From: Marsupella aquatica
Lineage: Eukaryota; Plantae; Marchantiophyta
DNA length: 64,000 nt
Direction of reading: 5' to 3'
Assembly (NCBI GenBank): GCA_973895155.1
Contig: OZ316895.1
Coordinates: 23,954,281 to 24,018,280 of the forward strand
Position numbers and translations under genes: made by a program. The stretch's first letter is position 1. The number at the start of each line of letters is the position of its first letter. Below the pieces are notes generated by a model that did not search any database, was not told the origin of the DNA, and worked only from the letters and a program-made list of their open reading frames with translations. Below, piece by piece: positions 21,557 through 40,997 of the stretch.

Positions 21557-24421
21557 TCAAGTGCCCGTATACGTAGAATAGAGAGCTAAAATTCGTCGTC
21601 GCTGCTGGTGCCACCGTTGCAGCCAAACACCACCCTTTAAGGTGATCAAGCTCGACGAGTCTTCGTTGCTATAGCAATCGCTGTCTTTGCTTTCATGAGT
21701 CTGATGAAAACCGGGCTGCTGTGGAACTGGAACGAAACGCCCGGTATCAGACTCTTCCGTATCGTCACTGTCGCACACAGTGCCAGCGGATTTGTGACCA
21801 TTGTTATTATTATTGCTATAATTATTTCTGTGAGTGTTGTTATTGTCTTCGCAAGAGTACACATACACACTGCCGATATCCTGTGAATCGAATCCATTGA
21901 AACTCGATCCCGACGATTTTGTGTAGGCTCCCATTCTCGGGAATACAAGCCAGTCCCCGCAGCACAATTGAGGGAGCCAGATATCGCGCAAGATGGTGTC
22001 CAACGCATCGCACGTTGGTCCGAACACAGTGGATTTATATGTCTCCGTGCATTGCTTGTCCCAGTTCTCGTCACCATCGTCGAATGTGGCCGCCGTCGTC
22101 GATGATGTCGTCACAGCACGCACGGAGAGAGTTGCGTGATCGTAGAGCAGGCAATTCATCGATCCATAGATTCCATCGTTCACCCAGTAGTCGGCCGTTT
22201 TAGCGCCACCCTTGGTACGCATCCGGCTGCCAAAGACGTGGGTGGCAAGAGTGAATGCTTCCTCTGCGAAATAGCGACCCGGCTCGGCAATTACGTCGAC
22301 TGGCATGCTTTTGGGGAAGTGCTTGTCCAGAGCTTCATTAATGGCAGCTGCAGCAGACGCGAATTTCACCCCCGTCCCGCCGGTGGAGACAAAGCCCCCA
22401 CCGATATCCAGCAGCTTCAATGGGGGGAGCCCCACCGCAGCCGCCATATCAAACACCCTCCTCGCAGATGCAATTCCCTCGGCAAAGGCAGCTGCGTGGG
22501 AAGCCCCGCTGCCTACATGAAACGCAACCCCAACGATCTTCAGTCCGTGCGCTTTAGCGGCTCCAAGAAGATGCTCACATTCCTCCAAATCAGCCCCGTA
22601 CTTCAGACCCAGCGGACAGCGCGCCCCGACGTCATCAGCTCGAATGCGCAACACTAGCTCCGCGGTGGGGAGATACTTGCTCAGCTTCAGGAGCTCCATT
22701 TCAGAATCGAAGGTCATTCGTAGCACCCCATGCTCGGCTGCATCGACAATGTGAGACGGTAGCTTACACGGATTGGCAAATATGACTCGATCAGCAGACA
22801 CCCCGAGCTGCCTGACGGCTGCAAGCTCAACTGTACTCGCCACATCAAAGCCGGCCCCTACCTTAGCCAGGAGAGAGAGAAGCGTTGTATCAGGATTGCA
22901 TTTGACAGCATAGAACGGTTTTACACGGGGCATAGCTCGCTCCCAAGCTCGCCACAGTCGGAGTATCAAACCCAGATCCATCACGTAGAAAGGATTTTCT
23001 TTCTCCACCGCCGTAATTGTCGCTCTGATGAATTGGTCCATGTCTGGTGGCGTTGGTCCGATGGCCACTGGATTCACTGCCGAGAACACATCCAGAACAT
23101 TTCTCCCGTGACGAGAGCACATCTCCCATGCATCCCGTGGAAGGTCATTCATGGATTGAACATAATTCTGCTCCCCTGTCGGCTCTGGATGATGACGATG
23201 ATGAGTTTGGGGCAGGATAACTAGACGAGGCTCGGCCCAAAGGTGACGATGATTCTCCCATAAAGCCAAAGGCGTGACCGGAGATGACAACTGAACCGCC
23301 CCGGTCGCAGCAGCTGCTTGGAAACTATGGAACACCAGCACACTTCCACACGACATCTCCCGCCGGGTCGTCCCTTCGCAAACATAACCCAGGGGAGTTA
23401 CAAATGCACCCCACGATCCAGCCGGCTGCACAGAGTTCTTAGATTGGAATACATTGCTCACTTGCACACTAACGGTAAACTTTGCTGGCTCAAAGACACG
23501 AGCAACTCTATCAAGGAGCGTCTGCAAATTCATGTCCTTGGGCCCATACCCCATGAACTCGAAGCTCGCATAGCTGTACCCATCCTCCGGAGTCACATGA
23601 ATGGTGGAATGCGCATTTCCTTCCAAGGCGTTCATCGAATAGCCGCAGGGATTGAACGAGAAGTCACATATTTTCGCACGCGGAATTATTTCGTCAATCC
23701 CTGAAGCCTTGGTCATGTCCCGCCCAGAGAGAGACCCATCCTCGTTGAAGAATTGATGAGCCTTCGTCTTGTCCAGCTCCGTCATGCACACCTCCACAGT
23801 GTACATTGGCTGTTGAACGATCATATCAGAGGCGGTATTGAAGCCTTGGTCGTCGGAGGTTGCTGCTGCTGCCATGTAAATGTGCCAATTGGGGAAGCTC
23901 CCCATGACGTGAGCCTCGCCACCAGAACCTAGATGCCCGAAATAATTTTGTAAGTATTGCACTTCGTCATTAAAGTCCCCGTGAGGATACAGCTGGACGG
24001 ATGGAAACATGAATGAACCGCGAGTGTACTTGCATCCCTTTACTTTGAGGTGCAATTGCAACGAAGCTGCTAGCAAAGGGGCAATGGCCAAGAGGAGCTG
24101 TGTTGTGCCACAGGTTTTCAAGACTATCTTCAGCGGGTAGATGAAGAGGCTAGACTCTGAAAGCACGTAAGAATCACAATAGTCGTTGCTCAGCTCCGAC
24201 ACTATCGTGCACTGCGCAGCTGTTAAGATCATATTTAGCTGGCCCCGAGAGATTGCTCGAAAGCCTCTCCAGTTGAAAGCGCCGGAATCGTCACGGAGAA
24301 AATTGTTGGCATGATCGACAACGAACTCCAGCTCTAACCTCTTCTCAAATCCTTCAAACCCGACACAGGGCTTGCAATTGGTGCCAGTCATGAGCTCGGT
24401 AGGTCCACAAACGACTCCCAT
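21557..24421 (-). CDS. SAMDC-ODC: Bifunctional S-adenosylmethionine decarboxylase / ornithine decarboxylase fusion (AdoMetDC-ODC), 954 aa, intronless
   Basis: N-half (aa ~21-367): GFEGFEKRLE, YVLSE|SSLF (pyruvoyl Ser90), KTCGTT (Cys104), FNPCGYSMN, TIHVTPEDGYSYASFE. C-half (aa ~470-856): PFYAVKCN (PLP Lys507), FANPCK, FHVGSG, DIGGGF, AEPGRYF, LLYDHA, GPTCD (Cys804), MGAYT, FNGF. One open frame with a strong start context (ATAATGG). Confidence 0.96.
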   Translation of the reverse strand: MGVVCGPTELMTGTNCKPCVGFEGFEKRLELEFVVDHANNFLRDDSGAFNWRGFRAISRGQLNMILTAAQCTIVSELSNDYCDSYVLSESSLFIYPLKIVLKTCGTTQLLLAIAPLLAASLQLHLKVKGCKYTRGSFMFPSVQLYPHGDFNDEVQYLQNYFGHLGSGGEAHVMGSFPNWHIYMAAAATSDDQGFNTASDMIVQQPMYTVEVCMTELDKTKAHQFFNEDGSLSGRDMTKASGIDEIIPRAKICDFSFNPCGYSMNALEGNAHSTIHVTPEDGYSYASFEFMGYGPKDMNLQTLLDRVARVFEPAKFTVSVQVSNVFQSKNSVQPAGSWGAFVTPLGYVCEGTTRREMSCGSVLVFHSFQAAAATGAVQLSSPVTPLALWENHRHLWAEPRLVILPQTHHRHHPEPTGEQNYVQSMNDLPRDAWEMCSRHGRNVLDVFSAVNPVAIGPTPPDMDQFIRATITAVEKENPFYVMDLGLILRLWRAWERAMPRVKPFYAVKCNPDTTLLSLLAKVGAGFDVASTVELAAVRQLGVSADRVIFANPCKLPSHIVDAAEHGVLRMTFDSEMELLKLSKYLPTAELVLRIRADDVGARCPLGLKYGADLEECEHLLGAAKAHGLKIVGVAFHVGSGASHAAAFAEGIASARRVFDMAAAVGLPPLKLLDIGGGFVSTGGTGVKFASAAAAINEALDKHFPKSMPVDVIAEPGRYFAEEAFTLATHVFGSRMRTKGGAKTADYWVNDGIYGSMNCLLYDHATLSVRAVTTSSTTAATFDDGDENWDKQCTETYKSTVFGPTCDALDTILRDIWLPQLCCGDWLVFPRMGAYTKSSGSSFNGFDSQDIGSVYVYSCEDNNNTHRNNYSNNNNNGHKSAGTVCDSDDTEESDTGRFVPVPQQPGFHQTHESKDSDCYSNEDSSSLITLKGGVWLQRWHQQRRRILALYSTYTGT

Positions 24422-24653
24422 TATCAGTCACACGAACGATCGAGCGAAAAAATCTATGAAATTCGGATTTTAGCCAGAGATGGCATATACGTACTTCCAC
24501 ACTGGGCCAGCTGACTAGACCGATCTACAAGCTAGCTAGCTAGTTATCCATCGCCGACCAGCCCTTCCGAAACCGAGAAATTTGCTGGCGCGACCTTGCA
24601 CTCCGATTATATATGATTGCATGTAATCGACCGATCAAGAAGCAGTTTGGGAG

Positions 24654-25176
24654 TCAGGATGGCTTTCTCATGCACTGCACGCATAGTTACGATTGAATTA
24701 ATACAAATAAGTAATGAGTGAACGTTCAATCGAACGCATGTCCCAGAGAAGAAATCCTAGCAATTCTATTTCGAGAGGCTCGACATTATGCGTCCACAGA
24801 ACCATGACGATGGAGACCACAACCTATCAAACTGTTTCCAGTGTAGACTCACTGCATTGTGCAAGGTTTGTGCAAGGTTACATTAACAGCCAAACCTTTA
24901 AAAACCACTCACAGCTTCACACTTGCGAGGCTGCCACAAATAGAGAATGGAACGAATTCTCTTGGGAACAAAATTCGAGAAATACTTTAAGAAATTGACA
25001 GATGCAAGCTCACAAACTAGAACGGATGAGGAGAGGACCACACTTACGTTGGAGTATGCAGCAGTGCGGTACTTCTCAACACCTCCGTGCGGCCGCATAT
25101 CCTCGACTACGTAGTCCAGAGACCTTTCGTAAAGCCAGGACGTACGGCTCAGACTAACGCCTTCTTTGCGCTCCAT
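24654..25176 (-). CDS. Conserved-peptide 'small' uORF of the plant AdoMetDC leader, spliced: complement(join(24654..24674,25048..25176)), 49 aa
   Basis: MERKEGVSLSRTSWLYERSLDYVVEDMRPHGGVEKYRTAAYSN|CMRKPS*, with GTAAGT donor at 25047 and GCAG acceptor ending at 24675. Matches the plant AdoMetDC uORF consensus LYEAPLGYSIEDVRPxGGIKKFRSAAYSNCxRKPS. Confidence 0.93.
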
Positions 25177-25183
25177 TTAGCAT
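25154..25183 (-). promoter_or_regulatory. 'Tiny'-type uORF (MLNGAQRRR*) starting 7 nt upstream of the small uORF and overlapping it
   Basis: ATG CTA AAT GGA GCG CAA AGA AGG CGT TAG; the small-uORF ATG lies inside it in the +1 frame. Confidence 0.6.
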
Positions 25184-26620: not shown

Positions 26621-27480
26621 CCGGGGCTCAAATCATCATCTTAACATTGCCATCTTCTTCTTACCACTATAATATTCAAACCGGGGTCTCAAATCATCAT
26701 CTTAATCCTAACGTTGCCTTTCTTTTACCACTATAATATGTAATCACCGTTGCCATTTTTTAACCACTACAATATGCAATCTGGGGGCTCAAATCATTTT
26801 CAATCATCATCTTAATGTTGCCATTTCTTTTCCACTATAATATGTAATCACCGTTGCCATTTTTTTACCACTACAATATGCAATCTGGGGGCTCAAATCA
26901 TTTTCAATCATCATCTTAATGTTGCCATTTCTTTTCCACTATAATATGCAGTCTGGGGGCTCAAATCATCATCTTCACGTTGCCATTTTTTACCACTATA
27001 GTATGCAATCAGGGGGCTATAATCATCATCTTAACCGTTGCCATTTTTTTACCACTATAATATGCAATCTGGGAGCTCAAATCATCATCTTAGCGTTGCC
27101 ATTGTTGTACCACTGTAGTATGCATTCCGGGAGCTCAAATCATCATCTTAACGTTGCCATTTTTTTACCACTATAATATGCAATCAGGGGGGGCTCAAAT
27201 CATCATCTTAATGTTGTCATTTTTTTACCACTATAATATACAATCCGGATGCTCAAATCATCATCTTAAAGTTACCAGCTCAAATCATCATCTCAACCTG
27301 CCAATTTTTTACCACTATAATATGCTCAAATCGTCATCTTAATTAAAGTTACCATTTTACCACTATAATATGCAATCCTCTTCAATCCAGGGCTCAAATC
27401 ATCATCTTAAAAGTTGCCATTTTACCACTATAATATGCAATCTCATATCAAATCAAAGACTATAATATGCAATCTCATAT
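26621..27480. repeat. Minisatellite, ~57-60-bp unit, roughly 13 degenerate copies
   Basis: Unit GGGGCTCAAATCATCATCTTAACGTTGCCATTTTTTTACCACTATAATATGCAATC repeats with variants. Confidence 0.92.
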
Positions 27481-40925: not shown

Positions 40926-40997
40926 TGCCTCCACAGAGGATCGAACTCTGGACCTTCAGTTTACAAGACTGACGCTCTACCACTGAGCTATAAAGGC
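40926..40997 (-). tRNA. trnT-UGU: tRNA-Thr (UGU)
   Basis: GCCTTTATAGCTCAGTGGTAGAGCGTCAGTCTTGTAAACTGAAGGTCCAGAGTTCGATCCTCTGTGGAGGCA folds as a cloverleaf with anticodon loop CT-TGT-AA, intact A and B boxes, and a downstream TTTT Pol III terminator. Confidence 0.96.

Follow-up and report, generated by a model that had tools for sequence, protein, structure and literature searches.

Inspection of a 64,000-nucleotide (nt) stretch of the genome of the liverwort Marsupella aquatica (GenBank assembly GCA_973895155.1, contig OZ316895.1, forward-strand positions 23,954,281 to 24,018,280; hereafter the window) revealed a gene that joins S-adenosylmethionine decarboxylase (AdoMetDC) and ornithine decarboxylase (ODC) in a single polypeptide. 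Judged from its sequence, this gene was probably inherited from the ancestor of green plants, and would supply both substrates of spermidine synthesis, putrescine and decarboxylated S-adenosylmethionine (dcSAM), under one polyamine-sensing leader. Coordinates given below are positions in the window, and residue numbers refer to the protein of 954 amino acids (aa). Translation of the open reading frames (ORFs) gave one uninterrupted 954-aa frame on the minus strand, from an ATG at 24421 to a stop at 21557, open throughout with no stop in the linker; the plus-strand reading of 21557-24421 contains many stops. The features of the coding part are as follows.

21557..24421, minus strand: single frame encoding AdoMetDC, linker, ODC and tail (954 aa); the coding part needs no intron
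23318..24361, minus strand: class 2 (eukaryotic) AdoMetDC proenzyme domain, residues 21-368 (PF01536, TIGR00535, catalytic residues)
24155/24154, minus strand: predicted self-cleavage site E89/S90, inside the AdoMetDC domain
23042..23317, minus strand: linker, residues 369-460; from the AlphaFold2 predicted local distance difference test (pLDDT), disorder at 391-424 and helices at ~429-449
21851..23041, minus strand: ODC domain dependent on pyridoxal 5'-phosphate (PLP), alanine-racemase fold, residues ~461-857 (Pfam, solved relatives, catalytic residues, Foldseek)
21560..21850, minus strand: low-complexity C-terminal tail, residues ~858-954, predicted to be disordered (pLDDT <50 over 862-954)

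The presence of both decarboxylases in one frame, proposed in the initial annotation of this DNA, was borne out by the domain searches. The Pfam family SAM_decarbox (PF01536) matched residues 21-368 (E 1.8e-103; 346.7 bits against a cut-off of 22.2) and TIGR00535 scored 319.7 bits on the same half (cut-off 233.15), while Orn_Arg_deC_N and Orn_DAP_Arg_deC matched residues 484-719 (E 4.8e-72) and 478-831 (E 2.7e-20), respectively. The catalytic set of AdoMetDC is intact (E23, E26, E89, S90, C104, S262, H275 and E279, the counterparts of the human catalytic residues), as is that of ODC (K507, H635, E713, D761, H762, C804, D805 and Y833). The residues listed in the annotation (E89, S90, C104, K507, the YDH loop, C804 and D805) were all found at the positions it gave, and its view of both halves as plant-type and catalytically complete agrees with these results. 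The specificity loop reads Y760-D761-H762, which is the ornithine type (Asp then His), the His having been kept as annotated.

The closest solved relatives by sequence were mouse ODC (E 5e-100) and the potato-type AdoMetDC 1mhm. The alpha chain of 1mhm aligned from residue 91 and its beta chain to residues 19-89; self-cleavage to a beta chain of 89 aa and an alpha-ODC chain of 865 aa, as annotated, is still what the sequence predicts (9.9 and 94.8 kDa, respectively, from a full chain of ~105 kDa). An AlphaFold2 model built on a 64-sequence alignment was confident for both halves (mean pLDDT 80.1, low at 1-18, 391-424 and 862-954) and gave no confident packing between them (predicted template modelling score, pTM, 0.57). 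The best Foldseek matches of the model were human ODC (template modelling score 0.86-0.89 on the target). No protein identical to the 954-aa product was present in the protein collection searched.

The same layout is widespread. A full-length search returned 686 matches at E <=1e-50, the best 120 of which were examined; 119 of these 120 carried the domains of both enzymes (PF01536+PF02784+PF00278). The closest named relative, from the leafy liverwort Calypogeia fissa, showed 75% identity over 99% of residues 1-870. Fusions were found in Calypogeia, Marchantia (MARPO_0001s0543), Riccia, Selaginella, Adiantum, Ceratopteris, Klebsormidium, Closterium, Trebouxia, Micractinium, Bryopsis and Cymbomonas, and further in Psilotum, Pteridium, Coleochaete, Spirogloea, Neomeris, Nephroselmis, Crustomastix, Tetraselmis, Pyramimonas and Mantoniella; Mesotaenium, Chlorokybus and Mesostigma were recognized from the labels Mesen1, Chlat1 and Mesvir1. 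The range therefore takes in prasinophytes, Trebouxiophyceae, Ulvophyceae, Tetraselmis, streptophyte algae, liverworts, Selaginella, Psilotum and ferns. No moss, hornwort or seed plant was among the named sources of the best 120 of the 686 matches, most of which lack names, so absence from these groups is not proven. Many of the fused relatives come as complete ORFs from assembled transcriptomes. Of the 121 aligned proteins (query included), 117 kept every one of the ten catalytic positions checked, and the stretch equivalent to residues 369-477 measured 39-219 aa (median 110). Searches for shorter proteins detected the two enzymes as separate, stand-alone proteins: ODC in Sphagnum, clubmosses and seed plants, and AdoMetDC in Calypogeia, mosses, lycophytes, ferns, seed plants and Chara.

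Some database entries in this family call for comment. Three fusions (P0042, P0044 and P0081) are mislabelled at source as 'mitochondrial 2-oxoadipate and 2-oxoglutarate transporter', an annotation error. A protein labelled Leptophrys vorax (P0034) groups with Closterium, and was taken as probable prey RNA. P0087 was rejected as a fusion, being a tandem mite ODC, and served as an outgroup. Names that are wrong, or that derive from one half only, may have concealed fused proteins in the databases.

PF08132 was detected inside the Chlorokybus-type and Closterium fused gene models P0033, P0039 and P0040, and the DNA upstream of the window gene was therefore searched for an upstream ORF (uORF). 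The plant AdoMetDC small uORF was found ~750 nt upstream of the main ATG (PF08132, E 6.4e-14; 52 bits against a cut-off of 25), a leader that the initial annotation had overlooked. Its parts are as follows.

25154..25183, minus strand: candidate tiny uORF, an out-of-frame AUG ORF of 9 codons that overlaps the start of the small uORF
25048..25176, minus strand: small uORF exon 1, 43 codons (PF08132 and tblastn)
24675..25047, minus strand: predicted GT..AG intron of 373 nt within the uORF, from sequence
24654..24674, minus strand: predicted last uORF exon, ending Pro-Ser-stop (spliced uORF of 49 aa)

Small uORFs are described as 48-55 aa long with a penultimate Pro (PMC2811004), and the 49-aa spliced uORF, whose length depends on the predicted splice, fits that description. 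The AUG of the candidate tiny uORF lies 7 nt upstream of that of the small uORF. In most land plants the tiny uORF has 2-3 codons and a 1-nt overlap, a longer form being present in algae (PMC2811004); the candidate does not match the land-plant form, and with its nine codons and larger overlap is algal-like. A contig 86% identical to the Klebsormidium fusion (L003) encodes, intron-free, a continuous uORF of 47 aa that ends in Pro-Ser-stop, followed by a fusion of 873 aa, as the spliced mRNA of such a gene would look. By analogy with plant AdoMetDC, the uORF likely places ODC under the same polyamine feedback as AdoMetDC.

Separate phylogenies of the two domains, which the initial annotation had recommended, both followed plant phylogeny, a result that speaks against local convergence. 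For AdoMetDC, an IQ-TREE analysis of 44 rows chosen from 240 (named taxa favoured) and rooted on seven chlorophytes gave an order that tracks plant phylogeny. Stand-alone AdoMetDCs nested within the clades of streptophytes (100/99) and of land plants (100/98), outside which lay fused algae, and a 187-row FastTree concurred on this nesting. At least five changes between the fused and stand-alone states were forced, and an approximately unbiased (AU) test rejected monophyly of the fused AdoMetDCs (p=1.3e-5). P0246, a stand-alone AdoMetDC of Calypogeia, had the Marchantia/Riccia fusions as its sister group (100/97), and its tail could be aligned to the last ODC motif of those fusions and to their tail (47% over 68 aa). 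An ODC stub of this kind was detected in four stand-alone liverwort-type AdoMetDCs (P0246, P0247, P0250 and P0254): after removal of the Ser/Asp run from the query, they scored 80-115 against four Marchantia/Riccia fusions, values reached by 0 of 1000 shuffles in 16 of 16 pairs. Such stubs are direct sequence evidence of loss, not gain. The position of P0246 in the tree, together with its stub, suggests that the fused gene was duplicated in liverworts; in Calypogeia, an internal deletion would then have removed ODC from the Marchantia-type copy, and the faster-evolving copy seen in the window would have stayed fused. Fission of AdoMetDC thus appears well supported. Because stand-alone AdoMetDCs nest within the fused family and carry ODC stubs, the fusion is probably ancestral in green plants, and was probably split repeatedly.

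In the ODC trees, the fused streptophyte domains formed one clade, in species order, and the stand-alone ODCs of Sphagnum, clubmosses and seed plants another. With more outgroups (58 of 166 rows), the stand-alone clade lay inside a green clade (100/97); fused members occurred in each of the three deep branches of this green clade, and its sister, P0398, was fused as well (93/83). Fission of ODC therefore seems likely.

Further fused proteins came from a profile search of 1.84 billion representatives, for which 150 matches were listed; 128 were new, and 40 of these listed new matches had both halves. The 166-row ODC tree put about twenty fused proteins outside the green clade, although two of them (P0407 and P0409) were back within it in the AdoMetDC tree. 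In the 58-row ODC tree, all sampled fused proteins except P0412 joined the green ones and some stand-alone ODCs in a single clade (95/87). P0419, P0426, P0429, P0430, P0431, P0434 and P0458 made up an ODC group (98/96) and stood apart from green proteins on long AdoMetDC branches. Most non-green fusions retain both active sites, the ODC halves of P0444, P0445, P0450 and P0467 looking dead; some non-green members might, at a guess, be alveolate proteins related to the Plasmodium enzyme. P0412 (743 aa, AT-rich-looking), with its ODC outside the clade of the other fusions, is possibly an independent fusion. We put forward only tentatively the broader idea that the fusion arose anciently in eukaryotes and predates green plants: the Plasmodium enzyme would be one of its surviving branches, polyamine synthesis in early land plants would still run from it under one uORF sensor, and the AdoMetDC and ODC of flowering plants would be its fission products.

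Several points weigh against an ancestral, jointly regulated and fully active fusion. The rooting of the AdoMetDC tree on chlorophytes was assumed, and the stand-alone AdoMetDCs sampled were the 120 best of 1639 matches, all land-plant-like plus Chara. The stub test was negative against the window gene, Calypogeia P0002 and Selaginella, being positive only against Marchantiales fusions, and a general profile of linker, ODC and tail found remnants in just 2 of 82 stand-alone tails. Stand-alone seed-plant ODCs were placed within streptophytes at 92/76 only, with the bootstrap not settled, and an ODC tree with a single long mite outgroup put the root among streptophytes. The uORF is completed only by a predicted splice, and three more short AUG ORFs (at 24622, 24551 and 24486) lie between its stop and the main ATG, where the simple model does not explain them. 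Finally, the relatives P0411, P0444, P0445, P0450, P0467 and P0114 have decayed ODC halves, and intact residues are therefore no proof of activity.

Only the AdoMetDC half might work, with ODC a regulatory or decaying passenger, or else a lysine or arginine decarboxylase. We regard this as unlikely. The absence of ODC catalytic residues from several fused relatives would fit a passenger, as would P0242, a 69%-identical relative that goes out of frame right after the start of ODC; in the window gene, however, every ODC catalytic position is present, and the ODC half is 83-84% identical to that of Calypogeia. With regard to arginine, D761, which alignment and residue numbering place at the position changed in the chlorovirus arginine enzyme, matches ODC and not the Glu of that enzyme. 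Use of lysine is disfavoured by H762, a residue that clubmoss and legume L/ODC-type (lysine/ornithine decarboxylase) proteins alter (HDY, YDF, YDS); the YDH loop was found in 98 of 120 stand-alone ODC matches and was altered in clubmoss and some legume proteins. The Asp-to-Glu change of the chlorovirus enzyme is described in PMC6356823. D761 and H762 thus point to ornithine, over arginine or lysine, as the predicted substrate. Dead-looking ODC halves beside intact AdoMetDC were seen in the land-plant-like P0411 and the Mesostigma-labelled P0114, and also in P0444, P0445, P0450, P0467 and P0460; these fusions are possible pseudoenzyme regulators. P0242 (a Logan protein of 499 aa, its 69% identity being over the AdoMetDC half) keeps the linker, and over its final 30 residues it looks like the window's ODC DNA read in a shifted frame; it represents either fission under way or an assembly error.

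That AdoMetDC and ODC genes lying side by side were fused convergently several times, in different green lineages, is less probable still. The initial annotation had favoured a convergent origin, which is difficult to reconcile with a layout common to 119 of the 120 best matches across Chlorophyta and Streptophyta. The domain order is identical in all fusions, and the fused streptophyte ODCs have a clade of their own, in species order, apart from stand-alone land-plant ODC. Poor conservation of the linkers (39-219 aa) would fit convergence. Fused and stand-alone states do alternate, with 8 changes in the AdoMetDC tree and 10 in the ODC tree, counts that cannot separate gain from loss; the ODC stubs on stand-alone AdoMetDCs, however, indicate loss, and the AU test rejects a single fused group. 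That such fusions can recur is suggested by the position of the P0412 ODC outside the main fused clade, and by a bacterial SpeD-ODC cluster described below.

The integrity of the locus was examined in contigs from four runs of two studies, which showed no joint and no indel within the frame. In run X1, possibly the source of the window DNA, the whole 5-kb stretch lay on one contig; from the other study, X3 record 13 covered ODC and the complete linker (21867-23323) with zero differences. None of the independent contigs listed crosses the AdoMetDC/linker border with 31 letters on each side (X4 record 22 has ~26). At least 19 codons differed in X4; of the 19 listed, 11 were synonymous, and among these best-supported variants none was a stop or affected a catalytic residue. 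The fused frame is considered genuine chiefly because 119 separately assembled relatives show the fusion, more than on account of the local contigs. An assembly chimera, or a misreading of two adjacent genes, is accordingly very improbable: the sole contig across the whole locus may be the source assembly, and no RNA run was among the eight listed as carrying this DNA (a result with no bearing on expression), but the frame is single and open, the fused relatives come from independent assemblies that include transcriptomes, and second-study contigs cover 30 of 30 bins with no joint.

If the gene is indeed an inherited fusion under a polyamine-sensing leader, its mRNA would be read under the tiny/small uORF switch. 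In the angiosperm model, ribosomes would translate the small uORF and stall at high polyamine levels, turning off the supply of putrescine and dcSAM together, while under polyamine shortage the overlapping tiny uORF would enable ribosomes to bypass the small one. The proenzyme, as known for the family, would cleave itself between E89 and S90, the products being the beta chain (89 aa) and a pyruvoyl-alpha-ODC chain (865 aa). Shared PLP active sites would arise through pairing of two ODC domains, each of which would bear AdoMetDC on a partly disordered tether, and dcSAM and putrescine would be made in step. The stand-alone AdoMetDCs of mosses and seed plants, and probably seed-plant ODC, would be duplicated copies that lost one half. 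The 1:1 enzyme ratio proposed in the initial annotation holds for the product of this gene; cell-wide it is doubtful because stand-alone AdoMetDC paralogs exist, Calypogeia also having P0246.

These results would reverse the usual picture, since the separate AdoMetDC and ODC genes of seed plants look derived and the fused state ancestral in green plants. A possible reason for the fusion is that the AdoMetDC uORF would hand polyamine feedback to ODC, antizyme control not being known from this lineage. Genetic testing is possible because the orthologous family occurs in Marchantia (MARPO_0001s0543), Ceratopteris and Klebsormidium. A compact plant fusion could, moreover, stand in for the Plasmodium complex, a full structure of which was lacking as of 2011 because of poor expression (PMC3253432).

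Elsewhere in the window, a tandem array at 26663-27277, on the gene's strand and ~1.5 kb upstream of the uORF, has periods of 58 and 104 nt, with 6-7 copies of the 58-mer. A tRNA-Thr(TGT) gene lies at 40926-40997 on the minus strand. None of the ten other ATG-started ORFs of >=120 aa in the window had a Pfam match.

As to earlier descriptions, the abstract of Green et al. 2011 is said to mention briefly an AdoMetDC-ODC fusion, identified bioinformatically, in the green alga Micromonas. Micromonas XP_003057072.1 is indeed entered under ODC as well as under SAMDC in Table 2 of a 2019 review (PMC6356823). The novelty claimed for the fusion was therefore overstated as regards green algae, whereas no description in land plants was found. 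The literature searched held no account of a land-plant fusion, its ancestry, fissions or a uORF link, although slash-joined names (AdoMetDC/ODC) are unsearchable and papers that use no other form may have been missed; nor is a land-plant fusion mentioned in the available parts of PMC12803844, PMC8503589, PMC9491463, bioRxiv 2024.06.04.597157 and PMC6400997. For the family as a whole, the scheme of an ancestral fusion that was split more than once, with a single uORF ahead of both enzymes and possibly an origin in common with Plasmodium, appears to be undescribed.

Among known systems, the Micromonas fusion very likely belongs to the same family, a Mantoniella-type fusion (P0079) lying in the green clade with the window gene; the published mention reportedly concerned one alga, whereas the window gene is from a land plant. 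Plant AdoMetDC genes with tiny and small uORFs have the same catalytic domain and the same small uORF (PMC2811004), but here the controlled ORF also contains ODC, and the nine-codon tiny candidate overlaps more. Stand-alone plant ODC and L/ODC (Sphagnum, Huperzia, seed plants) share the fold and motifs at ~50-55% identity, but belong to a separate paralogous clade, and L/ODCs change the specificity-loop His (PMC12674995). Bacterial SpeD-SpeDC fusions also place AdoMetDC and ODC activities on one chain; in these, however, both halves are class 1b pyruvoyl enzymes, with an unrelated ODC fold (PMC10407285). The rank-2 cluster in the ESM Atlas (score 0.83) comprises 90 bacterial members of ~506 aa, with Actinomycetota the commonest source and with PF02675 (88%) and PLP ODC-type domains, and offers a lead to a possible separate bacterial SpeD-ODC fusion. 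A parallel in layout is the Plasmodium AdoMetDC/ODC, termed unique in a 2011 review (PMC3253432): one ORF with an N-terminal AdoMetDC, a hinge and a C-terminal ODC, and an expected ODC-mediated dimer (PMC3253432). Its chain of ~170 kDa (PMC3253432) contains parasite-specific inserts, in contrast to the ~105 kDa of the window protein, which has plant-type domains and a plant uORF leader. The purpose proposed for the Plasmodium fusion is a balanced supply of putrescine and dcAdoMet, not channelling (PMC3253432); since the two reactions are parallel, the same argument suggests that the benefit of the plant fusion would lie in co-regulation.

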